This document shows, one piece after another, positions 2,889-30,909 of a stretch of 64,000 nt of DNA (its first letter is position 1; each line of letters opens with the position of its first letter). This DNA is from Narcine bancroftii (taxonomy: Eukaryota): positions 250,914,001 through 250,978,000 of the forward strand of contig NC_091473.1 of the NCBI RefSeq assembly GCF_036971445.1. Reading direction: 5' to 3'. A program made the translations under genes and the position numbers. The notes under the pieces were generated by a model. The model was given only the letters and a program-made list of their open reading frames with translations. It made no database searches and had not been told where the DNA came from.

Positions 2889-2985
2889 ATGGAGGTAGCG
2901 TGGGCTGAATTCACCCACCAGAAACAACCCAGTTATAAGGTTACCATCGCTCTGCTGCTTCTCATCTCTGTTGACCTCTCATCAG
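2889..2985 (+). CDS. Gene 1 leader (signal peptide) exon
   Basis: ATG 2889, MEVAWAEFTHQKQPSYKVTIALLLLISVDLSS(G). Hydrophobic core, then a CAG|GTAAAT donor in phase 1 matching the V exons. Conserved at 37045 and 57301. Confidence 0.8.
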
Positions 2986-3239
2986 GTAAATCATTATATT
3001 TTCATAAACAATGTTCTGTAGCCTTATTCTTAGCTGTTGTTTAGAATCATTCATTTGGGCCATGGTTTTTTTTTAATGTCGGAAGCTGACAAAAGGTAGA
3101 AACATCTGTGTCACAGCCTGCACTGAGTACTGAGTGAAAGATAACTCAATCACAGCCTTGCAGGTTCCTGCACTGACTTCCAGCAGTCGTTGTGGCAGAT
3201 TTATGAGCAGATAATCTGCAATCTCCCTCAAAAACTACC

Positions 3240-3990
3240 CCAGAACCGGAGAAATTTGCAGAGGCCAAGAAACTCAGTTCCATCAGAGACCGGTTCAGAC
3301 AAAGAGAGAAACTGAAAGCAACGTGGAACAGCCACAGAACGAAATTCCGTGGAGAGGAAAGGCAGGATTTCTTCCAAGTCCAGTCGAAGTGGCCACAGTA
3401 CAGAAGCAGAACATTGCCGGAAATCTGCAATAAAAGCAGATCAGGAGAGAAATAGCCTGCAGAGAGAAATCATATTGAGTTTGGATTATTTCCATTAATA
3501 TTTCCATTATTAACAACTCTTTGACAGTATAATCCTTAAAACTTTGTCTCCCTTCCTGGAGACTTGGACACCCAGCCCGAATTGTCACTGGCAGATCAGT
3601 GGCTTGGGACGTTCAAGGTTCCGTGGAAATGGTGTCACTGTTGAGACGCAATCAACCACGATCGAATACCCATTATTCCAAACGCTTCACACCTGCAGAA
3701 CCCCTCCAGCGCTTGCCAAGCCAACTATTTTCATGGTGAGACAGAATAGTCCCAGTTGCAGTCACTCTCCATTAAACCGTGAAAGGTCACACCTCCCCTT
3801 TCCCTCCATCTCCACCGTGGCGAGTCTCCTGTTGTACTCACCTGTGTAAGGAAAAAAGTGGGATGCTGGGAATTACATTTCAGAGGGTTGTCCTTTCCTG
3901 CCATATGGGAGGGGGATGTTTTTAATCCCTATTGGTCCACCAGTCCAGAAATGCAATGGGAGGCCAACGCACGAAGCCCCTTCATCGCCA
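3240..3990. repeat. Locus-specific intronic module X (copies ~7310-8060, 14215-14965, 18025-18635, 37390-38130, 44320-45070, 57655-58262)
   Basis: Shared core gagagaaactgaaagcaacgtggaa...gaaatagcctgcagagagaaat in 7 copies of three sequence classes. I do not recognise it as a known TE. Confidence 0.75.
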
Positions 3991-4069
3991 CCAGCCTTGT
4001 AGTTACACAGTTGAAAATTAAATGAACTAGAATTGTAGAGAGCAGAGAGTGTTGTGAGGAAATCTTGTG

Positions 4070-4990
4070 CAACTCTCGTAAAGAGTGAATACCTGTTATT
4101 TCAATCCATTCCGATTTATATACCACAACATTTTTAAAAAAATATTAAATAACAGCATAAGAAGTTTCTTGTGGATCGCAAAGTCTCCAGTGTTTCTGTG
4201 GAAAAATTAACATGGGATTACAAATTTTTGGGGGGTGGTTGGGGTGGCTACGATTACCTGATTTTAGGGAATATTCCTTAGCCGCCCACTCGAGGCTCCT
4301 CGCATCTTTATTTGAGAGAGTGAACCATCATCATGGGTTAATATAGGATGACACAGCATGATGGAGGGGAAGGCAAAAGATTTCATTTACAAAACAAATA
4401 CCAAATGAATAAATAAAAGAACAGATAACCCCATCCTAAAACATCTGGTAAAGATATGGAAGGAAATTAATGATAAGAGATTGTAATCTCACCAAAAGCA
4501 CCTAAATAAGGAGGGAGTCGGACTTGGTCAGATTTATGTAGGGAAATGGTAACATTGGTGATCATTGTCAGACTAAGATTGGTACAGTATAATTTCTTAC
4601 ACCCATTGTATCTCTATATAATAAAAATTATATAAAGGAAAATCAGAGATATCGGAAATGTGCTTCAAGTGTGGGTGAGAAATGGGTACCTTTATACACG
4701 CCACATGGACCAGCACGAAGGTGAGGCCCTTTTGGTTGGAATTATCTCATATATTAACTATAGAATACACTTCCTGCTGGATCGGGAGCTGTATTTATTG
4801 GGAAACTTAGAGGTCGTGAGCAGATCATTAACTAAATTCCAAATTAAATCTGTAGATATTGCCCTGTCAGGAGTAAAAAAAAGCTCAGCGATCACCTGGA
4901 ACTCTGAATCTCCCTTGCTCATCACTCGGTGGTCCACGGAGATGCACAACTGCCTGTCCATGGAGAAAATAACATATAAGAAATAAATAC
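4070..4990 (+). mobile_element. L1-clade ORF2 C-terminal remnant, duplicated with the V-exon unit (copies ~8100-9020, 11655-11920, 15000-15925, 38200-39125, 41757-42025, 45110-46030)
   Basis: GG-LRLPDF motif and degenerate zinc knuckle (CFKCG...GTFIHATW...VRPFW), with frameshifts and stops. Confidence 0.7.
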
Positions 4991-6492
4991 CATGCTTTTG
5001 CAACCTTATCTCAAGCCCTTTGGTGCACAGCTTTAGCACCAGCCCACAGTTCTAAAAAGCTAACAAAATGCTGAAAGGCTAACAAAATTCACAGCAGTGA
5101 AGCTCCCCGAGGAGTGGAAGTCGGGTACCTGAGGTTCTCTTTTCTTTTTCCCATTTCTCTGTTTGCCACTTTAATTGTTTTAGTTGTGGTTTAGATTTCA
5201 AAGTTCTGGGGCATGAAAGGAAGTTACAAACAAGCAGCATAATGTTGGTATCAGAGAAGTGAATTATACTAAACAAAATTGTAAATACATTAAAAATGGA
5301 TTGTTTCTTCGATGTGATATTATATTTGTTTTGGAAAAATTGAAAAATAAAATTTTCAAGAAAGACTGAGTACCTGGTGATCAGAAACTAATTGTAGCAG
5401 GTAAAATGGAATGAATAACATTCTTCAACTAGATAAACTTCAAATTAAGTATTTGTGCTTCTCGCCTGGTTGAAGGGCAGAGCTCACTTGTAGTTGAGTT
5501 TAGTTTCCCCTGCCAACGTTACTCTCTTTTCCTGGCCTTTCCCAAATAACACAATTGTGAAAACAACGACAACTTTGCTTCATCTTTGTGAAATTAAGCT
5601 TTCTTCTGACAGCAATCAAAAACTTAGGCCATCAATAATTATTGATATGCGTCGTTTCACCATTTTAATGTGCTCGATCCCCCTAACTTTCTAACCTTGC
5701 TACGCCCCAGGGGATAGTGGATGCCTGGTGCTCCCTCTAACTATATTCAACCCAATTCAAATAAATAGCCTGGATGTTTCCCTTATCCTGTAGTGTAGGG
5801 TAATTGTCGGAATGGGGTTGAACATGGTTAGAGGAATGACCAGGCCACCACTCCCTACCTACTCCTTACACTCAGAACCCACTCTTCCTGATGGAGATTG
5901 TCTGGCTCTGTGAGTGTGTCAGGGTCACAGGGATCAGGGGGATAAATAACTCTCATGGTCTTCTTGCACAAGCCCCTTTCCAGCCTGGAACTGGGCCTCA
6001 GGGAAAAAGAGGATCTGACTTAGTGTGGGAGAGACATGTGGGGAGAGAGGAGGCAAATCATTTTTTTTCATTCATTGTGATTCTCTGAGTCAGTGAGGAA
6101 TATCCAGCTGCAGATTTTCTAACTGAACTTTTTTTGGGGGGAAATGGTCTCAAGGAGCAAGTCCACCATTTGTTGCCCATCTCTGCTTGCCGCAAGAGGC
6201 TCGTGCTGAGGTCCCTGTGGAACCCCTGCAGAGATCGCATCCCTAGAACTCACCACAAGAAACAACAGACAAACATGTTGGAAAATCAGGCTGAGGCATT
6301 CTGCTTTCACTCAAACCTGAGGAACAGCTTCGATGAAATGAGAATTCACACCAGGATTAGAATATGGAAGTGCAACATGACGTGGACAAAATCATGAATC
6401 TCCATGAACGGTAGAAATGTCACAATTCTATTGCTAAATTCAGCGTGTGTGGATGCAGTGTGGGTAATTTTTCATCTTTTATGTTCCAACAG

Positions 6493-6807
6493 GTTCAACT
6501 GCAATAACTGGTCCCAAACACGTTAAGGGAGAAGAAGGACAGTCGGTCACTGTGGAATGTCGGTATGATCGGAAATACAGGGACTACAAGAAACAATGGT
6601 GTAGTGGTTATTATAATCTATCAAGTGCTGTTGTTGTTTCAACTGATCGCCCACAAAATGGAAGATCATCGATGACAGATAACAAGGCAGAGGCGATAAT
6701 GTCAGTCACCATAGACAACCTACAGAAGGAAGATGAAGGATTGTACTGGTGTGTGATCGAAAAGATAATCGATGAAAAGTTTTTGATTCACTTGCAAGTT
6801 TCTGAAG
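6493..6807 (+). CDS. Ig V-set exon, type A (gene 1 domain 1)
   Basis: ttccaacAG acceptor and G|GTATGT donor. GSTAITGPKHVKGEEGQSVTVECRYDRKYRDYKKQWC...TIDNLQKEDEGLYWC...IHLQVSE shows the GxSVTxxCxY, KxWC and DxGxYWC motifs of CD300/pIgR-type V domains. Confidence 0.93.
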
Positions 6808-9800
6808 GTATGTTGACAATTCCTCCCCATTTGGCCCAAATTTGAACATTGCACCAGTCACACCCTCCACAATCACACCCATTCCAGTCACAAACACTGG
6901 TGACATCAGCTTTTTGATCACTCCAAATCCAATTATAATTCCCTCGATGGGAAAAGTGATCATTACAGAGTGACTCCCAGGAGCATATCGAGGGAGGTCC
7001 ACATACTGCTAGAAGAGGTGGGATGGTGGGTGGAACAGGTCCGGGTGGAGGGGGGGGGTGCTTAAGTGTTTCCACGAAAGCTTATCCTGTGGTGTCATAG
7101 GATCTGCTTCCCATTCTCGCTTGAGAGGAGGAGAGGAATAGACAGTGGCAAAGCTAGGGTGGGGTGTTGGTTGCAGGAGGGAAATAATGCATTCTACAAG
7201 AGTGGTGCATTTTCAACCATTTTTTAATTCTTTAGTTCCCAAATGCAATAAAAGTCGAATCTCTTTTTCACTATTGGTTCCTTTTACTTGGAATCAATGT
7301 GGAAATAGGGTAGAACTGGAGCGATTTGCAGAGGTTGAGAAACCCAGTTCCAACAGAGACCTGCTCAGACAAAGAGAGAAACTGAAAGCAACGTGGAAGA
7401 GCAACAGAACGAAATTCCGTGGAGAGGAAAGGCAGGATTTCTTCCAGGCGCAGTCGAAGTGGCCAGAGTACAGAAGCAGAACATTGCTGGAAATTTCCAA
7501 TAAGAGCAGATCAGGAAAGAAATAGCCTGCAGAGAGAAATGTATTGAGTTCAAATTTTGTTTCCAATATTAACAACTCTTTGATAGTGTCATCCTTAAAA
7601 CATTTTCTCCTTTCCTGGAGACTTGGTGGACACCCACCCCTACTTCTCATTGGCAGATCAGTGGTTGGGGTCATTCGAGGTTCCATGGAAATGGCCTCAT
7701 ACTTGGAATGGAATCGACCACGATCGAATACCCGTTATTCCAAATACTACAGACCAGCAGAGCAGAACTGTTCCAGCGCTTGCCGAGCCAACCACTTTCA
7801 TGGCCACGCAGAATGGTCCCAATTGCAGTCACTCTCCTCTAAACCATTAAAGGTCACAACTCCCCTCTCCCTCTATCTCCACCGTGGTGAGCCCTCAGTT
7901 GCTCTCACCTGTGCATAGAAAAAATTGGGAATTGCATTTCATAGGCTGTCATTTCCTGCCATATGGGAGGGGGATTATTTTCTAATCCTTATCGACCACT
8001 AGTTCTGAAATGGAATGGGAGACCAATGCCTGAAACCCCTTCATCGCTACCAGCCTTGTGGTTATACAGTTGTAGATAAAATAAACGAGAATTGTAGAGA
8101 GGAGAAAATGTGAGGAAAACATGTGCAACTCTTGTAAAGAGTGAGTACCTGTTATTTCAATCAATTCCGATTTATGAACAACATTTTTAAAATATTAAAT
8201 GACAGCATAAGAACTTTCCTGTAGATCTCTGCGGAAAAATTGACGTGGGATTATAAATTTTGGAGGGGGGGAGCGGAAACTACGATTACCTGATTTTAGG
8301 GTAAATTCCTGAGCCGTCCAGTCGAGGTTCCTTCCATCTTTATTTGAGAGAGTGAACCACCATCATGGGTTAACATAGGACGACCTAGCACGGGAGAGGG
8401 GGAGGTGAAAGATTTCATTTACAAAACAAATACCAAATAAATAAAAGAACAGATAACCCCATCCTAAAACATCTGGTAAAGGTCTGGAAGGAAATTAATG
8501 ATTGGATCGGTAAAGAGATTGTAATCTCACCAATGCACCTTAATTCTGAGGGAGTTGGACTTGGTCAGATTTATGTAGGGAAAGTGTAACATTGGTGATC
8601 AACGCCACAATAAGATGGTACAATATAATTTCTTACACCCATTATATCTCTATATAATAAAAATTATATAAAGGAAAATCAGAGATATCGGAAATGTGCT
8701 TCAGGTGTGGGTGAAAAATGGGTACCTTTATACACTCCACATGGACCTGCCGAAGGTGAGGCCCTTTTGGTTGGAATTATCTCATATATTAACTAAAGAA
8801 CAGACTTCCCGCTGGATCGGGAGCTGTAATTATTGGGAAACCTCAAGGTCGTGGGCAGATTATTAACTAAATTCCAAATTAAATCTGTAGATATTGCCCT
8901 GTCAGGAGTAAAAAAAGCTCAGCGATCACCTGGAACTCTGAATCTCCCTTGCTCATCACTCGGTGGTCCACGGAGATGCACAACTGCCTGTCCATGGAGA
9001 AAATAACATATAAGAAATAAATACCATGCTTTTGCAACCTTATCTCAAGCCCTTTGGTGCACAGCTTTAGCACCAGCCCACAGTTCTAAAAAGCTAACAA
9101 AATGCTGAAAGGCTAACAAAATTCACAGCAGTGAAGCTCCCCGAGGAGTGGAAGTCGGGTACCTGAGGTTCTCTTTTCTTTTTCCCATTTCTCTGTTTGC
9201 CACTTTAATTGTTTTAGTTGTGGTTTAGATTTCAAAGTTCTGGGGCATGAAAGGAAGTTACAAGCAAGCAGCATAATGTTGGTATCAGAGAAGTGATTTA
9301 TACTAAACAAAATTGTAAATACATTAAAAATGGATTGTTTCTTCGATGTGATATTATATTTGTTTTGGAAAAATTGAAAAATAAAATTTTCAAGAAAGAC
9401 TGAGTACCTGGTGATCAGAAACTAATTGTAGCAGGTAAAATGGAATGAATAACATTCTTCAACTAGATAAACTTCAAATTAAGTATTTGTGCTTCTCGCC
9501 TGGTTGAAGGGCAGAGCTCACTTGTAGTTGAGTTTAGTTTCCCCTGCCAACGTTACTCTCTTTTCCTGGCCTTTCCCAAATAACACAATTGTGAAAACAA
9601 CGACAACTTTGCTTCATCTTTGTGAAATTAAGCTTTCTTCTGACAGCAATCAAAAACTTAGGCCATCAATAATTATTGATATGCGTCGTTTCACCATTTT
9701 AATGTGCTCGATCCCCCTAACTTTCTAACCTTGCTACGCCCCAGGGGATAGTGGATGCCTGGTGCTCCCTCTAACTATATTCAACCCAATTCAAATAAAT

Positions 9801-10526: not shown

Positions 10527-10841
10527 GTTCAACTGCAATAACTGGTCCCAAACAAGTTAAGGGAGAAGAAGGACAGTCGGTCACTATGGAATGTCGGTAT
10601 AATCGGAAATACAGGGACTACAAGAAACAATGGTGTAGGGGTCATTATTATGTATTTAGTTCTCCTTTGGTTTCAACTGAACGCCCACAACATGGAAGAT
10701 TATCAATGACTGATAACATGGCAAAAGGGATACTGTCATTCACCATAGACAACCTACAGAAGAAAGATAAAGGAAGGTACTGGTGTGGGATCGATAAGTA
10801 TATCGATGAAAAGTTTCCCATTGATTTGGAAGTTTATGAAG
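10527..10841 (+). CDS. Ig V-set exon, type B (gene 1 domain 2)
   Basis: aaacAG acceptor, G|GTACAT donor, 315 nt open. ...ECRYNRKYRDYKKQWCRGHYYVFSSPLVST...DKGRYWCGIDKYIDEKFPIDLEVYE. Confidence 0.92.
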
Positions 10842-13397
10842 GTACATTGACAATTTCTCCTCACTCAGTCAAAATTTGAAAATTCCACCCTTGCCCCTCC
10901 CACCCTCAGCTCTGATGGTGACTCAGTCCCACATTTCCATGGCATCAAAGGGGTGGGGACTCATCAACTAGGTTTTTTGTCTCTTGGGGGGAGACAACAA
11001 CACCCCCTCGGCAGGACAGTCCCGACAGCCAACTGTTCTGCTCTTGGGTCATTCCCCCACAGCCAATTGCTCCGAGGTCAGAACCTTGCCCACACCCACT
11101 GGAACAGGTGGGACAGCAGACCTCCACCACACTACCCACCTCTGCAGTCCCACCCAGCCCAGTCCCACCCATTGGTGATATCAGCCGAGTTCTGTTCACT
11201 TCCTCAGTTATTCTCCTGATGGAAAGGCTGATCCTGAGAGAGTGAATTAGATAATCTGGGATATATTTAGCGGGTTGGGCAGCATCTTTTGTGAGAGAAA
11301 CTGGTTTAATATTTAAGAGAGATATCCTTCGTCCGATTTGGGCAAGTTTCAAGATCCAGGTGTGGGAGGAGTCATGGAGGGAAAAGAAAGGAAGCCCATT
11401 GATAATGTCATGGAGCCACTGCGTCTAACAGCATAGAACAGACCCATCAAATCCCCAGCTGTGCTCAACCCACTTCATCTGTCGCATCCTATATGAATGG
11501 TTCTAGGGCCATCTCGATATCCATTCAAGGTAAGAGTCTCTGCCATCACATTCTCAGGCAGTGCTTAAGATCCCAACCATGTTCTGGGTGAGCAAAATCT
11601 TCTCTATATCTCCTATAAAATTTTTTAATTGAACCAAAGAGCTTTGCGCTCTGGTGAGGCCCTTTTGGTTGGAATTATCTCATATATTAACTAAAGAACA
11701 GACTTCCCGCTGGATCGGGAGCTGTATTTATTGGGAAACCTCAAGGTCGTGGGCAGATTATTAACTAAATTCCAAATTAAATCTGTAGATATTGCCCTGT
11801 CAGGAGTAAAAAAAAGCTCAGCGATCACCTGGAACTCTGAATCTCCCTTGCTCATCACTCGGTGGTCCACGGAGATGCACAACTGCCTGTCCATGGAGAA
11901 AATAACATATAAGAAATAAATACCATACATTTGCAACCTTATCTCAAGCCCTTTGGTGCACAGCTTTAGCGAAAGCCCACAGTTCTAAAAAGCTAACAAA
12001 ATGCTGAAAGGCTAACAAAATTCACAGCAGTGAAGCACCTCGAGGAGTGGAAGTCGGGTACCTGAGGTTCTCTTTTCTTTTTCCCATTTCTCTGTTTGCC
12101 ACTTTAATTGTTTTAGTTGTGGTTTAGATTTCAAAGTTCTGGGGCATGAAAGGAAGTTACAAGCAAGCAGCATAGTGATGGTATCAGAGAAGTGAATTAT
12201 ACTAAACAAAATTGTAAATACATTAAAAATGGATTGTTTCTTCAGATGTGATATTACATTTATTTTGGAAAAATTGAAAAATAAAATTTTCAAGAAAAAG
12301 AATGAGTACCTGATGATCAGAAACTAATTGTAGCAGGTAAAATGGAATGAATAACATTCTTCAACTAGATAAACCGAATTAAGTATTTGTCCTTCTTGCC
12401 TGGTTGAAGGGCAGAGCTCACTTGTAGTTCAGTTTAGTTTCCCCTGCCAACGTTACTCTCCTTTCCTGGCCTTTCCCAAATAATAAAATCATGAAATCAA
12501 CGACAATTTTACTTCATCTTTGTAAAATGAAGCTTTTATCTTCCAGCAATCAAAAACTTAGGTCATCAATAATTATTGATATACGTCGTGCTCGATCCCA
12601 CAACTTTCGAACCTTGCTACGCCCCAGGGGATAGTGGATGCCTGGTGCTCCCTCTAACCATGTTCCACCCAATTACAACAAATAGTCTGGACATTGCCCA
12701 CATCCTGTAGCCAAGGATAATTGTCGGTATGGTGTTGAACATGGTAGAAGAACAACCAAGACCCCATTCCATGCCTGTTCCTTACACGCAGAACCCACAC
12801 TTCCTGTTGGAGATCGGCTGGCTCTGTGAGTGAGTCAAGGTCGGGGGAGAAAAAACTCCCATGGTCTTCTTGCACAAGCCCCATTCCAGCATGGAACTGG
12901 GCCTCAGGGAAAAAGAGGATCTGACTTAGTGTGAGAAAGACATGTGGGGAGAGAGGAGGCAAACCATTATTTTCCTTCATTGTGATTATCTGAGTCGGTG
13001 AGGAATATCCAGCTGCAGATTTTCTAACTGAAGTTTCTGGGGGAGTAAGTGGTCTCAAGGAGCAAGTCCACCATTTGTTGCCCATCTCTGCTTGCCTCAA
13101 GGGGCTCGTGCTGAGGTCCCTGTGGAACCCCTGCAGAGATCGCATCCCTAGAACTCACCACAAGAAACAACAGACAAACATGTTGGAAAATCAGGCTGAG
13201 GCATTCTGCTTTCACTCAAACTTGAGGAACAGCTTCGATGAAATGAGAATTCACACCAGGATTAGAATATGGAAGTGCAACATGACGTGGACAAAATCAT
13301 GAATCTCCATGAACGGTAGAAATGTCACAATTCTATTGCTAAATTCAGCGTGTGTGGATGCAGTGTGGGTAATTTTTCATCTTTTATGTTCCAACAG

Positions 13398-13712
13398 GTT
13401 CAACTGCAATAACTGGTCCCAAGCACGTTAAGGGAGAAGAAGGACAGTCGGTCACTGTGGAATGTCGGTATGATCGGAAATACAGGGACTACAAGAAACA
13501 ATGGTGTAGTGGTTATTATAATCTATCAAGTGCTGTTGTTGTTTCAACTGATCGCCCACAAAATGGAAGATCATCGATGACAGATAACAAGGCAGAGGCG
13601 ATAATGTCAGTCACCATAGACAACCTACAGAAGGAAGATGAAGGATTGTACTGGTGTGTGATCGAAAAGATAATCGATGAAAAGTTTTTGATTCACTTGC
13701 AAGTTTCTGAAG
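13398..13712 (+). CDS. Ig V-set exon, type A (gene 1 domain 3)
   Basis: Copy of 6493-6807 at +6905; one synonymous AAA/AAG difference seen; splice sites intact. Confidence 0.92.
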
Positions 13713-16700: not shown

Positions 16701-17431
16701 TAAATAGCCTGGATGTTTCCCTTATCCTGTAGTGTAGGGTAATTGTCGGAATGGGGTTGAACATGGTTAGAGGAATGACCAGGCCACCACTCCCTACCTA
16801 CTCCTTACACTCAGAACCCACTCTTCCTGATGGAGATTGTCTGGCTCTGTGAGTGTGTCAGGGTCACAGGGATCAGGGGGATAAATAACTCTCATGGTCT
16901 TCTTGCACAAGCCCCTTTCCAGCCTGGAACTGGGCCTCAGGGAAAAAGAGGATCTGACTTAGTGTGGGAGAGACATGTGGGGAGAGAGGAGGCAAATCAT
17001 TTTTTTTCATTCATTGTGATTCTCTGAGTCAGTGAGGAATATCCAGCTGCAGATTTTCTAACTGAACTTTTTTTGGGGGGAAATGGTCTCAAGGAGCAAG
17101 TCCACCATTTGTTGCCCATCTCTGCTTGCCGCAAGAGGCTCGTGCTGAGGTCCCTGTGGAACCCCTGCAGAGATCGCATCCCTAGAACTCACCACAAGAA
17201 ACAACAGACAAACATGTTGGAAAATCAGGCTGAGGCATTCTGCTTTCACTCAAACCTGAGGAACAGCTTCGATGAAATGAAAATTCACACCAGGATTAGA
17301 ATATTGAAGTGCAACATGACGTGAACAAAATCATGAATCTCCATGAACAGTAAAAATGCCACAGTTCTATTGCTAATTTCAGCGTGTGTGGATGCAGTGT
17401 GGGTAATCTTTCATCTTTTACGTTCAAACAG

Positions 17432-17746
17432 GTTCAACTGCAATAACTGGTCCCAAACAAGTTAAGGGAGAAGAAGGACAGTCGGTCACTATGGAATGTC
17501 GGTATAATCGGAAATACAGGGACTACAAGAAACAATGGTGTAGGGGTCATTATTATGTATTTAGTTCTCCTTTGGTTTCAACTGAACGCCCACAACATGG
17601 AAGATTATCAATGACTGATAACATGGCAAAAGGGATACTGTCATTCACCATAGACAACCTACAGAAGAAAGATAAAGGAAGGTACTGGTGTGGGATCGAT
17701 AAGTATATCGATGAAAAGTTTCCCATTGATTTGGAAGTTTATGAAG
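17432..17746 (+). CDS. Ig V-set exon, type B (gene 1 domain 4)
   Basis: Copy of 10527-10841 at +6905; splice sites intact. Confidence 0.92.
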
Positions 17747-19422
17747 GTACATTGACAATTTCTCCTCACTCAGTCAAAATTTGAAAATTTGAAAGCTTAT
17801 CCTGTGGTGTCATAGGATCTGCTTCCCATTCTCGCTTGAGAGGAGGAGAGGAATAGACAGTGGCAAAGCTAGGGTGGGGTGTTGGTTGCAGGAGGGAAAT
17901 AATGCATTCTACAAGAGTGGTGCATTTTCAACCATTTTTTAATTCTTTAGTTCCCAAATGCAATAAAAGTCGAATCTCTTTTTCACTATTGGTTCCTTTT
18001 ACTTGGAATCAATGTGGAAATAGGGTAGAACTGGAGCGATTTGCAGAGGTTGAGAAACCCAGTTCCAACAGAGACCTGCTCAGACAAAGAGAGAAACTGA
18101 AAGCAACGTGGAAGAGCAACAGAACGAAATTTCGTGGAGAGGAAAGGCAGGATTTCTTTCAAGCCCAGTCGAAGTGGCCACAGTACAGAAGCAGAACATT
18201 GCTGGAAATCTGCAATAAGAGCAGATCAGGAAAGAAATAGCCTGCAGAGAGAAATCGTATTGAGTTCGGATTTTGTTTCCATTGTTAACAACTCTTTGAC
18301 AGTATAATCCTTAAAACTTTGTCTCCCTTCCTGGAGAAGTGGTGGACACCCTCCCCTAGTTGCCATTGGCAGATGAGTGGGATGGGGACTTTCAAGGTTT
18401 CCATGGAAACAGCCAAACTATTGGGACGGAATCGTCCACGATCGAAAACCCAGTATTACAAACGCTTCACACCGGCAGAGCAGAACCCTACCAACGATTG
18501 CCAAGCTGCCCACTTTCATAGCCAGGCACAATAGTCCCAACCTTTAAAGTTCAGAACTCCCCTTTCTCTCCATCTCCACTGCGGCAAGTCTCCAGTTGCT
18601 CTCACCTGCACAGAGAAAAACGTGGGATGCTGGGAACTTTGCTAGGACCCAGGGGATAGTGGATGCCTGCTGCTCCCTCTAACCACGTTCCATCCAATTA
18701 CAACAAATAGCCTGGACGTTGCCCACATCCTGTAGCCAAGGATAATTGTCAGTATGGGGTTGAACATGGTAGAGGAACGACCAAGACCCCATTCCTTGCC
18801 TGTTCCTGACACGCAGAACCCACACTTCCTGTTGGAGATCGGCTGGCTCTGTGAGTGAGTCAAGGTCAGGGGGAGAAAAATCTCCCATGGTCTTCTTGTA
18901 CAAGCCCCATTCCAGCATGGAACTGGGCCTCAGGGAAAAAGAGGATCTGACTTAGTGTGAGAGAGACATGTTGGGAGAGAGGAGGCAAACCATTATTTTC
19001 CTTCATTGTGATTATCTGAGTTGGTGAGGAATATCCAGCTGCAGATTTTCTAACTGAAGTTTCTGGGGGGGAAGTGGTCTCAAGGAGCAAGTCCACCATT
19101 TGTTGCCCATCTCTGCTTGCCGCAAGGGGCTCGTGCTGAGGTCCCTGTGGAAACCCTGCAGAGATCGCATCCCTAGAACTCACCACAAGAAACAACAGAC
19201 AAACATGTTGGAAAATCAGGCTGAGGCATTCTGCTTTCACTCAAACTTGAGGAACAGCTTCGATGAAATGAGAATTCACACCAGGATTAGAATATTGAAG
19301 TGCAACATGACGTGGACAAAATCATGAATCTCCATGAACGGTAGAAATGCCACAGTTCTATTGCTAAATTCAGCTTGTGTGGATGCAGTGTGGGTAATCT
19401 TTCATCTTTTATGTTCCAACAG

Positions 19423-19737
19423 GTTCAATTGCAATAACTGGTCCCAAACACGTTAAGGGAGAAGAAGGACAGTCGATCACTATGGAATGTCGGTATGATC
19501 GGAAATACAGGGACTACAAGAAACAATGGTGTAGTGGTTATTTATATCTATCAAGGGCTGTTGTGGTTTCTTCTGATCGACCACAACATGGAAGATCATC
19601 GATGACTGATAACAAGACAGAGGCGATAATGTCATTCACCATAGACAACCTACAGAAGGAAGATGAAGGATGGTACTGGTGTGTGATCGAAAAAATGATA
19701 AATGAAAAGATTTCATTTTACTTACAAGTTTCTGAAG
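19423..19737 (+). CDS. Ig V-set exon, type C (gene 1 domain 5)
   Basis: AG acceptor, G|GTACGT donor. GSIAITGPKHVKGEEGQSITMECRY...WCSGYLYLSRAVVVSS...DEGWYWCVIEKMINEKISFYLQVSE. Confidence 0.92.
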
Positions 19738-21689: not shown

Positions 21690-22520
21690 ATTACAGGAAG
21701 GATGTGGAAGATATGGAGAAGGTGCAGAGGAGATTTACCAGGATGTTGCCTGGATTGGGAAACGAGTCTGATGAGGCGAGCTTAGTGGAACTGGGACTTT
21801 CCTCTTTGGAGCGTACAACGTCGAGAGGAGACTTGATTGAGGTCTACAAGAATATGAGAAGAATAGATAGGGTGGATGGCCAGCGCCTTTTCTCCAGGGC
21901 AGAAATAGCAAACACCAGATGACATATGTACAAAGTGAAGGGAGGGTAGCAAACACCAGATGACATATGTACAAAGTGAAGGGAGGGATGTTTAGGGGAG
22001 ACATCAGAGGCATTTGAAAGATGCTTAGACAGGTACATGGATGGAAGAAAAATAGAGGGAACGGGGTAGCGTGGGTTTAGTTTTTTCAAAGGAATATATG
22101 AATCGGCACAACATCAAGGTCCAAAGGGCCTGTACTGTTCTATGTAGCTCTCTCCCATCCCAGCAGTTGGCCTGTTGAACTTCCTTTGGGCTACCTCCAA
22201 TGCTACTCTGTCTTTTTGGTGAAGGGTTCCAACACTGTACACACAGTTCCTGGTGAGGTTTCACCAGTACCATGTGCAATTGCGACAAACCCTCCCTACA
22301 CTTAAACTCCATCCCCTTTCCAATGACTGTGGCCTTCCCAGCTTCAGGTTGGACCAGCCTGTTAGCCTTTGGCGAGTCGTGCACTAGGACACTGCGATCT
22401 CTCTGTAACTCACTCACTCATGAGCAGCCTCACTCTGTTAAGACAATAATCTGCCATATTTTCGCCACAATCATTCCATTCACATCAACGTTCTCGTCTT
22501 GATGTGCTCTTCCATCCACC
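21690..22520. mobile_element. CR1 3' fragment (+, ~21690-22145) followed by CR1 fragment (-, ~22150-22520); copies ~49820-50660 and ~61305-62135
   Basis: EKVQRRFTRMLPGL...RGDLIEVYKNMR on +; LVKPHQELCVQCW on -. Contains a 41-bp tandem duplication at 21906-21987. Confidence 0.85.
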
Positions 22521-22583
22521 CTCACCTCATTGGCACACTTAGGTTGTAAACAATTTAGGGCCAAGGAGCAATTCCTTGGATAT

Positions 22584-22910
22584 TCCAAAACTTGCATCCT
22601 CTCAGCCGGAAATGGTATCCTTCATTCTAGCTCCATATTTTCCATGTGACGGCCACTCTTCATTCTCCAAAACTTGCATCCTCTCAGCCAGAAAACGTCC
22701 CCTTCATTCTAGCTCCATATTTTCCATGTGACGGCCAGTCTTCAATCTCCAAAACTTGCATCCTCTCAGCCGGGAAGGTCTCCTTCATTCTAGCTCCATA
22801 TTTTCCATGTGACAGCCAGTCTTCAATCTCCAAAACTTGCATCCTCTCAGCCGGAAAAGGTCTCCTTCATTCTCACTCCATATTTTCCATGTTACGGCCA
22901 GTCTTCAATC
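22584..22910 (+). repeat. ~82-bp minisatellite, 4 units
   Basis: Unit tccaaaacttgcatcctctcagcc...ccatattttccatgtgacggcca starts at 22584, 22666, 22748 and 22829. Confidence 0.92.
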
Positions 22911-23299
22911 CGTGCCGGGACACTTGCTCAGTATCTCAAGATTCAAGCTTCCTTTTGTCGTCATAGTAACACATAAAAATATAATTGACAGGATATGTTT
23001 CCATTTTTGTTGGCTGCAAGGTAAACAAATAGTTGCCATGAGCCTTGCCCAGCTCCCCTAAAGAGAAGCAAAAGAGAATTCCTTCAGACACACCGAGTGG
23101 CCGTGGATTCGCCTCCAGTGCTCCCACAACTTCTGCCATCACACAGGACTCCTGCCTGATTCATCAACAACCCGAGCCCAGATCCAAACCTCCAATACGA
23201 TCAGGAAGCTGTAAGTGCCTCAGGCCCTTCTATCCTCAGCACCATCTCAAATCCCGGTTCGAATACCTGGTGCCCCTGAGCCGGTGTCCAGCAGCCCAC

Positions 23300-23790
23300 A
23301 GCCTATGTGGATCTCCCAGTGGTCAACCACTTCAATTCTGCATCCCATCCCCATGCTGACATGACCATGGTCTCGTGCTGTCAAACAAGTCCATCAGTCA
23401 ACTGGTGAAACAACACTCAATTTTCCATCTCCAACCAGATGGCATTAACGACTTCTCCAGTTTCCGCTTGCCCACTCCCCGCTCTCCCTCCCTTCCTTTT
23501 CACCTCATCTTCTTTCCTCCATTTCCCCACCCTTCCCTCTCTATTCACAGACCCATCCCTCCTCCCCACGTTAGCTGCTCTGCCCTCCCTCCCTTATATC
23601 TTATGCCTGTGGGGCTGTGCTCCTCCCATTGCCCCTGCCCTTCCCCCATCACTTTATTGAGGCGCCTGCTTACATTTTGTCATCTCTTGATGCTGGGCTC
23701 AAGCCCGAAACATTGGCGATGTATCTTTATCCTTACTCTAAAAGGGATCTATTTGACCTTTTGAGTTTCTCCAGCTTTGTGTTTTGACCT
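23300..23790 (+). mobile_element. Penelope-like element 3' fragment/tail (copy ~62750-63243)
   Basis: Degenerate QHSIFHLQPDGINDFSSFR (end of the GIY-YIG region) followed by a C/T-rich tail ending gagtttctccagctttgtgtttt; similar to 26320-26740. Confidence 0.6.
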
Positions 23791-23793
23791 TAG

Positions 23794-23899
23794 ATACTTC
23801 ATCCATTGTAACCTCTGGGCCGAGCACATTCAGCATGAAAACAGCAGGTGCTGAGACCTCCACAGCAGCCTTGCAGACCTCTTCATCGCCTCAAACCTG
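23794..23899 (+). CDS. Ser/Thr-rich stalk exon (gene 1)
   Basis: ttttgaccttAG acceptor (phase 1) and TG|GTCAGT donor (phase 2). DTSSIVTSGPSTFSMKTAGAETSTAALQTSSSPQT(W). Conserved at 63246. Confidence 0.7.
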
Positions 23900-23970
23900 G
23901 TCAGTCACTCTAAGCCACAACTCTTCATTGCACAGGTTAATCACTGAATTAGGGCCATCTGAAAATGACT

Positions 23971-24045
23971 CAGAAGAAAGATAAGGCATGATGATCAAAA
24001 ATAAATTCAATGAAAAGTTTTTCATTCACTTGGAACTTTCTGAAG
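23971..24045 (+). pseudogene. Truncated 3' remnant of a V exon
   Basis: cagaagaaagataag...aatgaaaagtttttcattcacttggaactttctgaag|gtacattgacaatttctcctcactc matches the end of the V exons and their donor and intron. The 5' part and the YWC motif are missing. Confidence 0.8.
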
Positions 24046-24269
24046 GTACATTGACAATTTCTCCTCACTCGGCCCAAATTTGAAAATCCCACCCTGGGAC
24101 CTCCCACCCTCGACTCCAATGGTGACTCATACCCTCATCTCCATGGCATCAAAGGACTCATCAACAGGATTTCCTGTCCTTTGAGGGAAGACACCAATAC
24201 CTTCTCCCCTTGGACACGAGTGAATGGATGTTCAACCACTGACCCGACAGAACGGTCCCGACTCCGAGA

Positions 24270-24650
24270 TCAGAACCTTGCCATACCCACTGGAACAGGA
24301 GTGACGGCAGCCCCGCATCAGCTCCCCGACCAACCACTGCAGTCACACCCAATTCTGCCATCCCACCCCCCCAGTCACACCCACCTCAATAAAGCCCACA
24401 CAGTCCCAGCCATTGCAGTGAAACCCCCCCAGCAGTTAAACCCACCACAGTTGCACACCCCGCAGTGATAACCAACGCAATGACACCCACCACAGTCTCA
24501 CCCACACATTTCAAAGGTGACACCCGCTGCAGTGACCCCCACCACAGTACCACCCATAGAAGTCTCACAGTTAAACCCCCCCCCACAGACCTGCCCACCG
24601 CAGTCCCGCCCTCCGCAGTTCCAATCCCTGCAGTGACACCCATGAGTCAG
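24270..24650 (+). repeat. Degenerate short C/A-rich repeats (gcagtgacaccc/cacagtc motifs)
   Basis: Recurring ctgcagtcacaccc, gcagtgaaaccc, gcagtgaccccc and gcagtgacaccc motifs. Confidence 0.5.
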
Positions 24651-24724: not shown

Positions 24725-25090
24725 GAGAGACCATAAACCATTAGAGCAGAATTGGACTGTTCAGCCCATCGAGTCTGCCCCACCACTTAATCACGAGCTG
24801 ATCCATTTTCCCACTCAGCCCCATTGCCCGGCCTTCTCCCCATAACCTTTGATGCCCTGGCTAACCAAGAACCTATCAATTTCTGCCTTAAATACACCCA
24901 ATAACCTTGCCTCCACAATCGCCTGTGGGAATAAATTCCATAGATTTACCACCCCTTTGGCTAAAGAAAATCTTTTGCAACTTGGTTCCAAGCGGATGCC
25001 CTGCAATCCTGAAGTTGTGCCTCTTCTCCTACACTCTCCCATCATGGGAAACAACCTTTCTACATCAACTCTGTCCACATCTTCCAACAT
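24725..25090 (-). mobile_element. CR1 3' end
   Basis: VDRVDVERLFPM...VVNLWNLFPQAIVEARLLGVFKAEIDRFL...GIKGYGEKAG. Confidence 0.9.
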
Positions 25091-25119
25091 TAGAATTGAT
25101 TCTATTAACTCTATTAATT

Positions 25120-26310
25120 GGTAGAGGGGAAGCTACGTTTTGGAAGAAGGCAGACGTTTCGGAATCTCCAGACTGGAAGACTTCATCTTGGGAACAGGTG
25201 CGGTGGAGATGGAGGAATTGAGAGAAGGGGATGGAATTCTTGCAAGGCACAGGGTGTGAGGAAGTGTAGTCAAGGTAGTTGAGGAAATTGGAAGGTTTAT
25301 TATGAAGGGAATAGATAGACTAGATGCAAGTAGACTCTTCCCCCTGAGAGCAGGGGAGATTGAAACAAGAAGAAACAAATTGAGTACAAGGGGGCAAAAT
25401 TTTAGGAAAAACATTAGAGGATGTTTCTTCACTCAGAGAGTGGTGGCTGGATGGAATAATTTTCCGGAGGAAACAGTTGAGGCAGTGTCAATTTTTTCAT
25501 ATAAGAGAAGGCTGGATATATACATGGATAAGAGGGGGTTAGAGGATTATGGGCGGAGAATAGGTGAGGGGAGTTAGCAGAGTTGTTAAGTGAACTGGCG
25601 TAGACTTGTAGGGCCGAGATGGCCTGTTTCCATGCCATAAATTCTCTTATATATGTTATAGTATATGTCGGTGGAAAGCTTGTCTCCTGAGATGGAGACC
25701 AAGAGGTCCAGGAAGGGGAGAGTGATATTGGAGATGAGGCTGGGAATTTGAGATTTGGGGTGGAACTTGGCCATAAAGTGAATGAAGTTGACAAGCTCAT
25801 CGCAGGTACATAAGGCACCAGCAATGTAGTCGTTGATATACTGGAGGATGAGTTTGGGGCTCTTGCCTGTGTAGGCTTGCAGCATGGATTGCTCCACAAA
25901 GCCCACAAACAGGCAGGCATAGCTGGGACCCATGCGGGTTCCCATGGCTACTCCTTTGATTTGGAGGAAGTGAGTGGAGTTAAAGGAGAAGTTGTTTAAA
26001 GTGAGGACAAGTTCCGCCAGGTGGAGGAGGATGGTGGTGGAGAGTGACTGGTCAGGTCTCTGGCCCAGGAAGAAGAGAAGTACTTTCAGACCTTCTGTGT
26101 GGGGAATGGAGTTATAAAGGAATTGGTCATCCATCGTGGAGATGAGGTGGTCCAGTTCGGGGCATCTGAAGTCACTGAGGAGATGGAGGGCAAGTGAGGC
26201 ATTGTGGATGAAGGTGGGGAGAATTGGACCAGGGGAGTAAAGATAGAATGAAGTTAAGATGAAACTAGTTTGTTGAGGAAAGAGGAGGCAGAAATAATAG
26301 GTCTACCTGG
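25120..26310 (-). mobile_element. Penelope-like element RT fragment, interrupted by a CR1 3' end (+, ~25290-25655)
   Basis: LAELVLTLNNFSFNSTHFLQIKGVAMGTRMGPSYACLFVGFVEQ...YINDY...LPFLDL...LSTDIYY. The inserted CR1 reads MKGIDRLDASRLFP...FFTQRVV. Confidence 0.88.
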
Positions 26311-26319
26311 ATGGTTGGG

Positions 26320-26740: not shown

Positions 26741-28419
26741 CCATTGTAAGTAAAAGAGTACCTGTAGTGAACATCTAACCATTTACATGATTTCTTCCTT
26801 AGATATTCAATGAAAGGAAGTATTCCATTGATTTCCACACCCCTGCCAGAATATCGCAATGTAGCTTATAGTCCCTCTTCACCCACTTCCCGCTGATCTC
26901 TCCTTCTCTCCTGTTCTCCATCCTTTCCTCTCCCTCAGCCTCATTGGTCCTTCCCTGCCCTACACAATCTGCACATTTCCATCCCTCAGGTACTCCAGCT
27001 TGCCAAGTGTTGGACACAGGACCTGTTCCCTGTAATACTGACAATGGATAGTTCAGGCTCAGGTTGCCTCCAACTTCACTTGTGGTGCAACACAGGATGT
27101 TGAGCCCGTGAAAGCTGGGATGGTGACCAGCAGCGAGAATTCAGTCAGAGATGTCCCAGCAGTGGACACCCATGGGTGACAGAGAAGATGTGGTTCCAAC
27201 TACTCTGTTAATTTCCATGAATCCAGGACATTCTTTGTTCAGGGACACAGGAGCTACTCTGGGCAGTGACCCAGAAATCGGAGACACATGGTTACCCTAC
27301 TTTCCTGAGAATGAAAAGAACACAAAGGCTGCGCATAGATTGTCACCAGAAAGAGCTTCAGCAAAAGCAAAAACACATTTATGCGATCTCTTCAAGAACA
27401 TTTCCAGCAGAGACTTTGCGTAACCTTCTGAATTTACACCCAATTAATCTCCAGCCTCTGTATCTACACACTTACCTGTGGTCTTCCAAACTCCCATTTC
27501 CTCACCTCCAAGCTGTCCATAATCGAGCTGCATCTCGTTCAGCATTGTCAATTCAGAACATGCCAGGCTGAACATGAGAAACTAGAGGAAGGACCCCAGG
27601 ACTCTCGATCCTGCTCCACCATTCAACGTGTATGTGGCCAATCTATGCTGGTCTCAACTCCTCTTCTGCGCCAGGTCCCCATGACCCACAATTGCTTCCA
27701 GGCATCCAGGGCTCAGGTCATTCATCCACTTTATCGCCAGATCTGAATGTAAACACCATAGAATCCTCCACTGCAACCTTTCAGACCACTTTGTATTACA
27801 ATGGAACACCCACCAGATAAGCAGAAACAACCTCATCACCTCAAACCAGGTCATCATTCAAAGCAAGTCCTCAGCCTTGTGCAGGATCTTCACAATGGTC
27901 AGGTTGTGAGAACAACCACTGATGAACGATTGAAGCAAGGTTGTCAGCACCTTCACTGATGGTCACAGTGGGTTATTATTGCATCAGTTACTCTTCATTA
28001 AACACAGATTATCTCTCCTTTTAGATATTGTTCAAAACTAATTTTCTTTCTGACAATCCGAGCCCAATCCAGGAGTAATTCTACCAGGTCATGGTCATGG
28101 TCCACAATGCCAATTATTCCATTCATAAAGCTTCACGAGAGGGTAAAATGGCCATGGGTGTGTGTAACTCAGTCCCAGTCACGTGCAGACAATATGATTC
28201 ACCCAAATCCTCTCCATTCTCTTCAATGGTACTGAAATCGAGGGAAATACTATTTCCCAATATCCCATGTCTTGCTTTATAACAACCCATATTATTTAAA
28301 TCTTTCAAAACAGACAACTTTGCACTTCTAGAACATTACAGAACATGTTAACTTTTACAAACAGATAACTTGGCACTTATTTTTTTTATTTTAATTTTAA
28401 AACTAAACATACAGTACAG

Positions 28420-28660: not shown

Positions 28661-28834
28661 CCCAGTTGTTGCATCATCTGAAAATTACACGTCATGTCTC
28701 TTACATTTATTTGCATGTCGTTGGAGTATGTACCCGTGAACAGTTCCAAGGGATGAATATCAGTGTCCCACTCCCAGTCCGCTCGATATTCCCCGGACAA
28801 CCTTGAATCAGATTGAACAATTTCAATGTGTTGA

Positions 28835-29195
28835 AGTAGAGAGGTAAAACTCAAAAGTTTGCAAACACAGTGGTTGAAGTAAAAAAAACCCAATGTCAGC
28901 AGGTCAGTGTACATTATGCAGCAGGGTAAAGATATATAACCAACGTTTCGGGCTTCAGACTTCATCAAGGTGTGAAAAATGTAGGGAAAGGCCAGAATAA
29001 AATGTGGGGGGTGGGGGTGGGGAATGGGCAGGGGGAGGTGCCTAGTCCCAAAGACAAGAGGTAATAGGTGGATAAGGGAAGGAGGGCAGAGCTGCAAGCA
29101 GGGGCAGGAGGGACACCTGTGAAGGGAGAGGAAAGGGGGTGAAGGAAAGAATACAAAGAGAAAGAGAGCGGAGAGTAGGCTGGCAGAAACCGGAA
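28835..29195 (-). mobile_element. Penelope-like/SINE tail
   Basis: Reverse complement of the same tail type (cttgatgaagtctgaagcccgaaacgttgg...). Confidence 0.55.
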
Positions 29196-29271
29196 CATTG
29201 ATGTTAATGATAAGAGTACAATTGCCTGTGTTGGTTATTGATTACATCAGTATATTTCCTTGTTTTATCAG

Positions 29272-29379
29272 GAACTCTGGACTGAATTTTCATAATCTCT
29301 GGGCTGTGTTGCGCTGGCTACTCTTTAAAGCTCTACTTTTCTGCACAGTTTCAATAAAGTGCATGACAAGTTTGCAAAG
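29272..29379 (+). CDS. Transmembrane exon (gene 1) with charged residues
   Basis: tttccttgttttatcAG acceptor completes the stalk's TG+G = Trp. NSGLNFHNLWAVLRWLLFKALLFCTVSIKCMTSLQ, then AG|GTAAAT donor (phase 2). Confidence 0.72.
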
Positions 29380-29539
29380 GTAAATTGTTTCCAATCTCTT
29401 CATTTCGATGTTGCCATTAATGTCTACAAAGAGATCAAGAGTTGCTGCAAGCTCCCTTGGGTCACGATAACCTGCCCCTCAAACATTATTCTCAAAGAGA
29501 ATCATCAATGGGGCTCAGATGGTCAATGGCTGAAAATAA

Positions 29540-30285
29540 TCATACATTACAGCATAGTACAGGCCCTTCAGTCCATGACATTCTGCTGACCTATCTCAAC
29601 CATCCTGACCTCACCCACAAGCTTCTATATTTTTTGCATCCATGTGCCGGTGTGAGAGTCTGTTAGATGTCCCTATTATGCTAGACCACCCCTGGCAATG
29701 CATTCCAGCCACTGTGCTGAGAACAATGTACCCTCGACAGATCCCATTAACTTCCCCCCCCCCCCCACACCTTGTGAAGACGTGTTCTGTTGTTTGCTAC
29801 TCTCACCCAAGGGAAAAGTTGCTGGCTGTCCACCCTATCGATGCCCCTCATAATCCTATAGACATCAATTAAGTCATCCCTTCATCCATCTTCACACCAA
29901 AGATAAAAGCCCTAGCTCTGTAAACCATGCCTCATAAGACATGTTCTCCATCCAGGGAACATCCTGGTCAATCTCCTCTACATCCTCTCCATAGCTTCCA
30001 CATCCTTCCTGTTTGAGGAGACCAACCTGAACACAATATTCCAAGTGTGCTCTCACCAGACTTCATAGAACTGCAACATTACCTTGTGATTAATCAAGCC
30101 CAACATACCACAAGCCTATCAACTTGTCTGGCAACCCTGAGAAATCCATGGATTTGGACCTCAAGGTCCCTCTGTTCTACCACACTGTTAAATATCTGGC
30201 CATTGACCATGTACTCCTCATTCAAGTTGACCTTCAAAATACATAACTTTACACTTATTCGGATTGAACTCCATCTGCAACTTTA
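29540..30285 (-). mobile_element. CR1 3' fragment
   Basis: QMEFNPNKCKVMYF on the minus strand, followed by CR1 3' sequence. Confidence 0.8.
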
Positions 30286-30806
30286 CAACACACATTAGAA
30301 GAGTAACATATACATTTAGGATAATCACTGCATAAAGGTTATTATTCTGATGGAAGGACATGTTTAGCTTTTCAAGGCCAGCGAATTTCTCACCAATTAG
30401 AGGTGCACAACCCTCATCACTTACACCAGGAGGCTCCTGGCATTCTCCACACTTCCACTTCACCAACCTCATCTTCATCCTATTCCCTCCTCCCAACTCT
30501 TTGTGGCATCCTGTACCCAAATCCTGGAGCAAACAATTATAGTCCTCCACTCCACTCCCCATCACCCTACACATTGACCAATACAAGCGCTCCTCTTGCT
30601 CGACAGTTCATGACAATCCTAGACATAGGCAACCAAAGACTTAATCTCACACCATCCTAATAACGAACCCTCCGCCACATAATTCCATCCATTCCTGATA
30701 CCCCCACCTGGGAATTATTGCAATGATTTCTTGACGACAAATATCATCAACCCAAACACCTATTTACACCTCTCAATCCCTGACCTGAGATTTTCTGCTT
30801 TATTAG

Positions 30807-30909
30807 ATGGACTAATGAGACATTCCATGGAAGAGCAGATCCTACCACACGGATTGGAAAAGTGTTTGCCGACTCATCTAATGACCTCGAAATTCAACCA
30901 AAGGATTAA
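30807..30909 (+). CDS. Candidate terminal cytoplasmic exon (gene 1)
   Basis: ttttctgctttattAG acceptor, phase-2 compatible. (R)WTNETFHGRADPTTRIGKVFADSSNDLEIQPKD*; ATTAAA at 31005-31010 downstream. No second copy in the window to confirm. Confidence 0.45.

Follow-up and report, generated by a model that had tools for sequence, protein, structure and literature searches.

The 64,000-nucleotide window analysed here, from Narcine bancroftii (contig NC_091473.1, positions 250,914,001 to 250,978,000), contains at 2889-30909 of the forward strand a receptor gene with five V exons. With good confidence, it is a spliced member of the shark/ray CD300-like (CMRF35-like) family and likely the activating half of a leukocyte receptor pair, with a domain count that is not derived from pIgR. 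Besides this receptor cluster, no other genes were found in the window.

The gene comprises nine exons, all with AG/GT ends, which join to 1989 nt encoding 662 aa with one terminal stop. From the N-terminus, the predicted protein consists of a signal peptide, V domains in the order A-B-A-B-C, a stalk, an Arg/Lys membrane helix and a tyrosine-free tail, and it is letter-for-letter identical to RefSeq XP_069798179.1 (Narcine bancroftii), which is named ‘pIgR-like’. The exons are as follows:

2889..2985, forward strand: signal peptide (exon 1); same protein sequence as the leader exon at 57301, with a leader-to-V loose end in run X7
6493..6807, forward strand: V1, type A; exon model, Pfam V-set
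10527..10841, forward strand: V2, type B; an internal donor truncating V2 is also used by RefSeq isoforms
13398..13712, forward strand: V3, type A; one private silent base at 13423
17432..17746, forward strand: V4, type B; same sequence as V2 and 40630-40944
19423..19737, forward strand: V5, type C; identical to 59050-59364
23794..23899, forward strand: Ser/Thr-rich stalk exon; one base differs from 63246-63351, joints in all four RNA-like runs
29272..29379, forward strand: activating-type membrane exon with Arg607 and Lys612; occurs once in the window, spliced joints
30807..30909, forward strand: final coding exon, encoding a tyrosine-free tail; polyA-like hexamer at 31005

An earlier note had read from the letters alone nine phase-compatible exons encoding a protein of ~662 aa with five V domains, an A-B-A-B series identical at the protein level and an activating-type membrane anchor, and all of this is upheld by the gene model: V1 and V3 differ by one silent base and V2 and V4 by none (A versus B, 41 of 315; A versus C, 26), and the charged helix precedes a tail devoid of tyrosine. 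Phase compatibility is weak evidence on its own, because every V exon is of phase 1-1, so that the frame is kept whichever of them are joined. The four distinct V types that were submitted all passed the Pfam V-set cut-off.

The domains are V-set domains of the CD300/TREM/pIgR subfamily and are nearest to CD300 by PDB sequence and fold. The model of domain B (pLDDT 93) fits CD300lf (Z 19.9, rmsd 1.2, 104 aligned) better than human pIgR D1 (Z 16.4, rmsd 2.0, 102 aligned), Foldseek likewise gives CD300lf the top rank, and the best single-domain PDB sequence match is CD300lf as well, with 70.9 bits compared with 31.9 bits for the best pIgR domain (four alignments shown). The PDB sequence ranking was not accepted as evidence for pIgR, which leads that list only through summed domains. 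In the full-length model (pLDDT 68.7, pTM 0.29, 11 sequences), the five domains are folded separately and their mutual arrangement is uninformative. Human CD300 has one V domain with two disulfides, and the helix of CD300C carries Glu. The Narcine gene has five V exons instead of one (two-domain bat CD300LF models also exist), and its domains are only 28-37% identical to those of bat CD300LF. Each of the nine Narcine V domains has three cysteines; the C-strand cysteine is kept, the C' cysteine is replaced by Ser or Arg, and the second, C-C' disulfide of CD300 (Cx6-8C) is absent, leaving one unpaired Cys per domain. Judged from its sequence, the receptor would work like CD300, but it is not classed with CD300 in the strict sense because the C-C' disulfide is absent, and for the same reason lipid binding cannot be assumed. 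A lead concerning the metal-site residues of CD300lf was dropped after a literature search gave no pertinent paper.

Phylogenetic analysis confines the repeats to the Narcine lineage. In a 63-domain tree (13 of 76 extracted domains omitted, namely five Narcine duplicates and eight from two further bird pIgRs), the four distinct Narcine domains form one clade (100/99) within a skate-sawfish-Narcine clade (99/88). In a 25-row tree, the 14 shark/ray domains cluster at 95/95 and a clade of Narcine and bird pIgR domains is rejected (p-AU 0.0197), pIgR being represented in the trees by bird domains only; in both trees, the deep branches that link the shark/ray family to CD300 rather than to pIgR are poorly supported and long branches meet. 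Placement in the CD300/pIgR group, as proposed in the earlier note, is thus corroborated by trees, fold and sequence. The very recent internal duplication that it assumed agrees with the near-zero differences between V1 and V3 and between V2 and V4 and with the Narcine-only domain clade, and its view that the resemblance to pIgR in domain number is convergent is in keeping with that clade and the rejected bird-pIgR grouping. Its contrast between one domain in CD300s and five in mammalian pIgR is weakened, since two to four tandem V domains recur in skates and rays. Together with the two to six domains of zebrafish PIGR-like genes (PMC13337447), these near-identical tandem domains mean that a count of five is not a pIgR-like signal.

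Mammalian and bird pIgR share the V subfamily of the Narcine receptor, but their domains are old and divergent, with an identity within the protein of 21-30% in all four bird pIgRs compared with 68-100% here and 64-97% in batoid multi-V models; orthology to D1-D5 was not found with the bird domains in the trees. The CDR1 insertion of D1, present in three full-length bird pIgR D1 and in mammalian D1, is absent from the Narcine domains in the alignments; according to PMC7709107, this region of pIgR binds polymeric Ig. The uncharged helix and long sorting tail of pIgR (114 residues in birds) are likewise lacking, the Narcine receptor having a charged helix and a tyrosine-free tail of about 40 residues. 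A true pIgR orthologue, moving polymeric Ig across epithelium, is barely conceivable: the five V domains and the RefSeq name would agree with it, but the domains arose in the Narcine lineage, the AU test rejects their grouping with bird pIgR domains, the membrane and tail regions differ as described, and a 2014 screen of sharks yielded no PIGR homolog (PMC4016189).

The closest known relatives are shark and ray CMRF35-like or ‘pIgR-like’ RefSeq models, with a best domain identity of 59-67%, the same leader and the same two membrane types, and the Narcine domains nest in this elasmobranch clade. Predicted relatives in other rays and skates have two to four near-identical V domains, for example, Leucoraja XP_055510911.1 (three V, activating helix) and Rhinoraja P0017 (four V, inhibitory); Pristis XP_051890308.1 has one. 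Skates, sawfish and some sharks have likewise lost the C' cysteine, the W-x-x-x-R-W membrane motif is found again in models from skate, stingray, devil ray and bamboo shark, and the alternative, an uncharged helix, goes with ITIM-like tails. Unlike these models, the Narcine receptor has five V domains (the most among the models retrieved), exact repeats, a C-strand cysteine in every domain and an extra Lys in the helix, Lys612 not being common to the relatives. P0020 and P0044 were discounted as true four- and two-domain receptors, their internal activating helix indicating that they are likely merged models; model P0018 contains both helix types. The modular domain immune-type receptors (MDIR) of clearnose skate, likewise a cartilaginous-fish multigene family with activating and inhibitory members, have been likened to CD300, TREM and pIgR (Cannon et al. 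2006, PMID 16738934, as relayed by PMC3031540). MDIR-named records did not appear in the homology searches, which were word-based and may miss them, and the comparison with MDIR is by description only.

Downstream of the five-V gene lie further exons of the same kind:

37045..47840, forward strand: 5' part of the partner gene, with leader 37045-37141, V-B 40630-40944, V-A 43502-43816 and V-A' 47526-47840
57301..63351, forward strand: 3' part of the partner gene or a third gene, with leader 57301-57397, V-C 59050-59364 and stalk 63246-63351

Up to 57301, the 5' part has neither a stalk nor a membrane exon of its own. In RefSeq model XP_069798184.1, the gene at 57301 runs on past the window, where it encodes an uncharged membrane helix and two ITIM-like motifs. 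The adjoining gene is predicted to be an inhibitory partner that shares identical V exons with the five-V gene, so that the cluster holds both an activating member (charged helix, short tail) and an inhibitory one (ITIM), the ITIM tail being taken from the RefSeq model beyond the window. The earlier reading mentioned neither the partner gene with its shared V exons nor the fusion origin nor the lost C-C' disulfide.

Three segments between the exons retain traces of how the five-V gene may have been assembled:

17790..18131, forward strand: rearrangement junction; 43 bases after V4, a jump to a copy of 7076-7416, then a copy of the intron following leader 57301
23976..24368, forward strand: fusion breakpoint; inhibitory-gene homology stops at 23975, and what comes next is left over from the 3' end of an older V exon, including its donor site and intron
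27737..27850, forward strand: decayed stalk-like segment with an in-frame stop, resembling a sawfish stalk (tblastn E 0.001)

The segment 18119-23975 differs from 57746-63427 at only 14 positions in about 5.9 kb, and it looks as if the five-V gene had formed recently, when the 5' module of the inhibitory gene was fused to an activating gene of greater age. In the presumable course of events, a leader-V(C)-stalk module was copied out of the inhibitory gene and landed within an old V exon of the activating gene, thereby capturing the membrane and tail exons of that gene; from the other neighbour, A and B exons may then have been placed ahead of C and multiplied via unequal crossing-over of a 6905-base B-A unit. 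Four alleles common to the three pre-B segments in the five-V gene set them apart from the neighbour, which is what copying inside this gene would produce. The domain count of five is most likely a by-product of recombination, reflecting neither descent from nor mimicry of pIgR. Between A and B, dN/dS is 1.41 (34.5 versus 6.5 changes), a value that carries no significance test and is not taken as proof of selection.

Over 4366 bases, the two A-B units show no difference, which would also fit an assembly artefact, the true gene having three V exons (A-B-C) or another count. Both units have a one-base gap where contigs of X1 and X5 carry an extra base, the DNA run X1 does not list the junction at 17790 but only the V2-type continuation at 17789, and copy number is not obtainable from contigs. 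Nevertheless, an artefact is quite unlikely: the private base of V3 accounts for the X8 contig boundary at 13424, the joint from the end of A to the start of A/B is present in X8, where most of B is without cover, and the V2-V3 intron differs from the neighbour's copy at five sites, about the same divergence as in other segments of the five-V gene. A contig of X5 starting at 17760 reads through the junction at 17790, its left 30 letters being one short of the bridging rule.

Splicing was assessed in four RNA-like runs, all from one study and with the run type guessed by the tool; contig depths were not used for exon ranking or copy counts, and the low cover of B in X8 was used only alongside contig boundaries. 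The joints C-stalk, stalk-membrane and membrane-tail occur in all four. The A-to-A/B joint, which by forward splicing only the five-V gene can yield, occurs in two and the A-to-C joint, which may derive from the partner gene, in all four; neither is present in DNA run X1. A joint out of a B exon was not listed in any of the three RNA-like runs on 13300-19800, and A' pieces were not listed in the RNA-like contigs, neither being proof of absence; the full five-domain chain hence rests on the RefSeq prediction. The clearest graph, X8, has pieces at 13424-13487 and 13488-13640 and a 102-letter piece from 13617, matching one of eight simulated transcript sets, which contains V1, V3 and C without B or A'. 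The X8 transcripts fit A-A-C, skipping both B exons. Exon skipping likely yields forms with fewer than five domains, whose reach and valency would vary.

This raises the tentative alternative, rated somewhat below an even chance, that the V exons of a real gene form a cassette array, most mRNAs containing between one and three of them and the protein with all five domains being rare or only a prediction. In line with it, beside the X8 pieces and the missing B-exit joint, four of the five RefSeq isoforms seen for the gene skip or truncate an exon; on the other hand, X5 and X7 contain pieces of B exons, all five V exons have intact frames and splice sites, and contigs lose variants and cannot phase repeats. 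A cassette array is compatible with a CD300-like activating receptor and alters the main isoform only.

Signalling would likely proceed via an ITAM adaptor that the arginine of the membrane helix recruits; the 2014 screen detected no FcR-gamma homolog in sharks (PMC4016189). The string of V domains would bind a repetitive surface ligand, for which the earlier note supposed that identical repeats could give avidity, turning recognition by the ectodomain of the inhibitory twin into activation. By analogy with CD300A/C, the ligand may be exposed lipid on dying cells or microbes, a proposal not far from an even chance; a pathogen protein targeting the inhibitory twin is possible but less probable. 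That the repeats are instead leukocyte triggers that hold pentameric IgM or IgW through avidity, as a convergent polymeric-Ig receptor replacing the Fc receptors reported to be missing in cartilaginous fish, is very unlikely. The V subfamily is that of pIgR, FcmR and Fc-alpha/mu R, and J chain and polymeric IgM exist in cartilaginous fish (PMC10801876), in which Ig sensing and moving is stated as open in PMC13337447; yet the D1 CDR1 insertion is missing, and fast turnover and an inhibitory twin would fit a pathogen-driven pair better than a conserved self ligand. A slimmer chance still attaches to the elaborated version, in which rays independently built a five-domain polymeric-Ig sensor with an ectodomain captured from the inhibitory twin, exon skipping tuning avidity for pentameric IgM and the unpaired Cys locking the ligand as secretory component does; such a sensor would provide the Fc-receptor function missing from cartilaginous fish.

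As a CD300-like activating receptor, the Narcine protein shares its paired design and homogenised ectodomains with CD300A and CD300C, a paired system with common lipid ligands and ectodomain gene conversion (PMC12447643). Lineage-specific shifts in Ig-domain number in paired receptors are also found in the zebrafish PIGR-like genes, in NILTs (1-6 Ig domains; bioRxiv 2022.04.21.489081) and in Xenopus FcR-like receptors (1-11; PMC2413239); these belong to separate lineages or families and are analogies, not orthologues. Literature on this Narcine gene was not found, the best 15 of 928 matches lacking the word ‘Narcine’ and subscription journals being mostly missing.

The receptor is an additional member of an already known kind of paired receptor, multi-V repeats being recurrent in skates and rays, and it cautions that ‘pIgR-like’ names in shark and ray annotation reflect summed domain scores, not orthology. 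Should the ectodomain bind polymeric IgM, the finding would gain much greater weight, given the question of how antibodies are sensed and moved in cartilaginous fish (PMC13337447). As it stands, the gene offers a clean and very young case of paired-receptor rebuilding, in which an activating gene appears to have captured the ectodomain of its inhibitory neighbour and to have changed in domain number through unequal crossing-over, with breakpoints still legible to the base.

Gene 1 has canonical ends at all of its nine exons, and its conceptual product of 662 residues equals RefSeq XP_069798179.1 (the electric ray Narcine bancroftii; automatic name 'pIgR-like'); the nine-exon, ~662-residue, five-V model of the earlier note thus stands, and it was already annotated. 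The predicted protein comprises a leader, five V domains of 105 residues with nearly no linkers (V1-V5, exon types A-B-A-B-C), a Ser/Thr stalk of 35 residues, a membrane helix carrying Arg607 and Lys612, and a tail that has no tyrosine. A second set of parts follows in the window:

2889-30909, forward strand: gene 1, nine exons, activating-type membrane exon at 29272
37045-47840, forward strand: leader (37045) and V exons B, A and A'
57301-63351, forward strand: leader (57301), V exon C and stalk

RefSeq merges the second set into a predicted protein that has four V domains, an uncharged helix and a pair of ITIM-like motifs; the final exons of this model lie outside the window. The B, A and C exons of this partner are identical to their gene 1 counterparts, the 600 bases upstream of the three start codons are 95-98% similar to one another, and the predicted layout is that of an activating/inhibitory pair. 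No stalk exon and no membrane exon lies in the B-A-A' block or in 47841-57300; to reach exon C, as RefSeq predicts, the block must be spliced past the leader at 57301, and otherwise it must terminate early. The early end (read-through stop 10 codons on, polyA-like hexamer at 47942) would give a secreted form. Because of its duplicated promoter and own leader, 57301-63351 may stand as a separate inhibitory gene with a single V, joined by RefSeq to the upstream block. Contig boundaries of two RNA-like runs, X7 and X8, are compatible with A' being absent.

The pair retains traces of its history. The segment 57746-63427 matches 18119-23975 with 14 differences; homology to the partner ends at 23975, where the sequence continues into what is left of an older V exon, its 3' part, and at 27737-27850 there is a decayed segment resembling a stalk. 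Read from these breakpoints, the most likely history is that the activating membrane exon formerly belonged with a V exon and stalk of its own and now uses, in their place, a module copied from the inhibitory partner. Upstream of this module, A and B recur with a 6905-base period; the units show 4 differences over 4740 bases, and alleles absent from the neighbour are common to three pre-B segments, which points to multiplication of A/B units by copying inside gene 1. V1 and V3 are a single silent base apart and V2 and V4 are identical, in support of the recent internal duplication proposed earlier. Exon A (6493) and exon B (10527) are 13% divergent in base sequence (dS 0.11, dN 0.15), with the changes concentrated in the C-C' loop and F-G region, but the 400 bases preceding them diverge by only ~3%, which suggests introns homogenised around older exon variants. 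Both gene 1 units lack one intronic C (14445, 7540) present in contigs of X5 (RNA-like) and X1 (DNA), possibly an assembly slip within a short run. An 82-base tandem repeat has four copies in gene 1 (22584-22910) and two in the partner (62201-62361), and decayed reverse-transcriptase-like fragments, putatively LINE-type as judged by translation, lie at 474-1096, 21620-21922, 24815-26302, 33008-33602 and 52690-54882.

Splicing was followed in four RNA-like runs, all from one study and of guessed RNA type. GT..AG joints C-stalk, stalk-membrane, membrane-tail and A-C occur in all four, and a joint from A to an A/B start, which forward splicing yields from gene 1 alone, in two; neither V-V joint is present in the DNA run across 13300-19800. 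Piece boundaries in X8 agree with one of eight simulated transcript sets, A-A-C carrying a V3-private base, which argues, from the contig graph rather than from a read, that V3 is genuine and that splicing can bring together three V exons or more. No joint exiting a B exon is listed in three of three RNA-like runs across 13300-19800. Judging by the contigs, some transcripts appear to hold more than two V exons, contrary to the outcome that the earlier note named as refuting; five V exons in one mRNA are a prediction of the gene model. In RefSeq isoforms an internal donor in the B exons (10527-10841, 17432-17746, 40630-40944) leaves a stub of 36 residues between domains; this donor may be genuine or a multi-mapping artefact.

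For a single domain, CD300lf is the best solved relative both by sequence (70.9 bits; pIgR domain at most 31.9 bits among the alignments shown) and by predicted fold (Z 19.9, rmsd 1.2, 104 aligned; human pIgR D1 at Z 16.4, rmsd 2.0, 102 aligned). A constraint uniting Narcine with bird pIgR domains was rejected (p 0.02, subject to a long-branch warning); the tree does not settle the deep CD300-versus-pIgR order. Gene 1 differs from pIgR in its membrane helix, its tail and the D1 site, and its domains are not orthologous to those of pIgR (judged by trees with bird pIgR domains); it likewise has neither the one domain nor the two disulfides of a strict CD300. Searches returned many shark and ray relatives, and gene 1 is, on sequence, a member of the shark/ray CMRF35-like family, probably of the kind described as skate MDIRs (a likeness drawn from the description in PMC3031540). 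Skate and stingray models, which are predictions and in part merged genes, have two to four V domains (64-97% within-protein identity) and a membrane helix of one or the other type present in the Narcine pair. Three RefSeq models (P0020, P0044, P0018; Hypanus, Mobula, Rhinoraja) with a mid-protein activating helix or both helix types are likely merged activating and inhibitory genes. Since the Narcine domains and eight Rhinoraja domains form separate clades, V-domain multiplication is taken from the tree to have occurred more than once. Changes in Ig domain number are published for fish and frog paired receptors (PMC13337447, PMC2413239 and bioRxiv 2022.04.21.489081), and CD300LF models of two phyllostomid bats (P0029, P0030), with two V domains, provide a mammalian parallel. 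Further background papers are PMC10801876, PMC4279169, PMC4384117, PMC9321927 and PMC7709107.

The second disulfide is typical of CD300 and pIgR domains, whereas the Narcine V domains lack it, the C-strand cysteine being its sole survivor in all nine. Both cysteines are lost in most skate and sawfish domains and kept in stingrays; some sharks have lost one or both. In each of the nine V exons one unpaired cysteine is encoded between the core tryptophan and a loop rich in aromatic residues; this cysteine is a possible inter-chain disulfide or redox site.

As predicted, the product of gene 1 would serve leukocytes as a receptor that carries no signalling motif itself and would work like a CD300 paired activating receptor. 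Arg607 would recruit an ITAM adaptor; a 2014 screen reported no FcR-gamma in sharks (PMC4016189). By analogy with CD300A and CD300C, which share a ligand (PMC12447643), the receptor and its inhibitory twin would recognise one ligand, at best guess a repetitive lipid or microbial surface; additional V domains would increase reach or valency, and exon skipping would vary their number. Gene 1 is a real, already annotated gene of a known kind of receptor, and its specialist interest lies in the still readable fusion and the unpaired cysteines.
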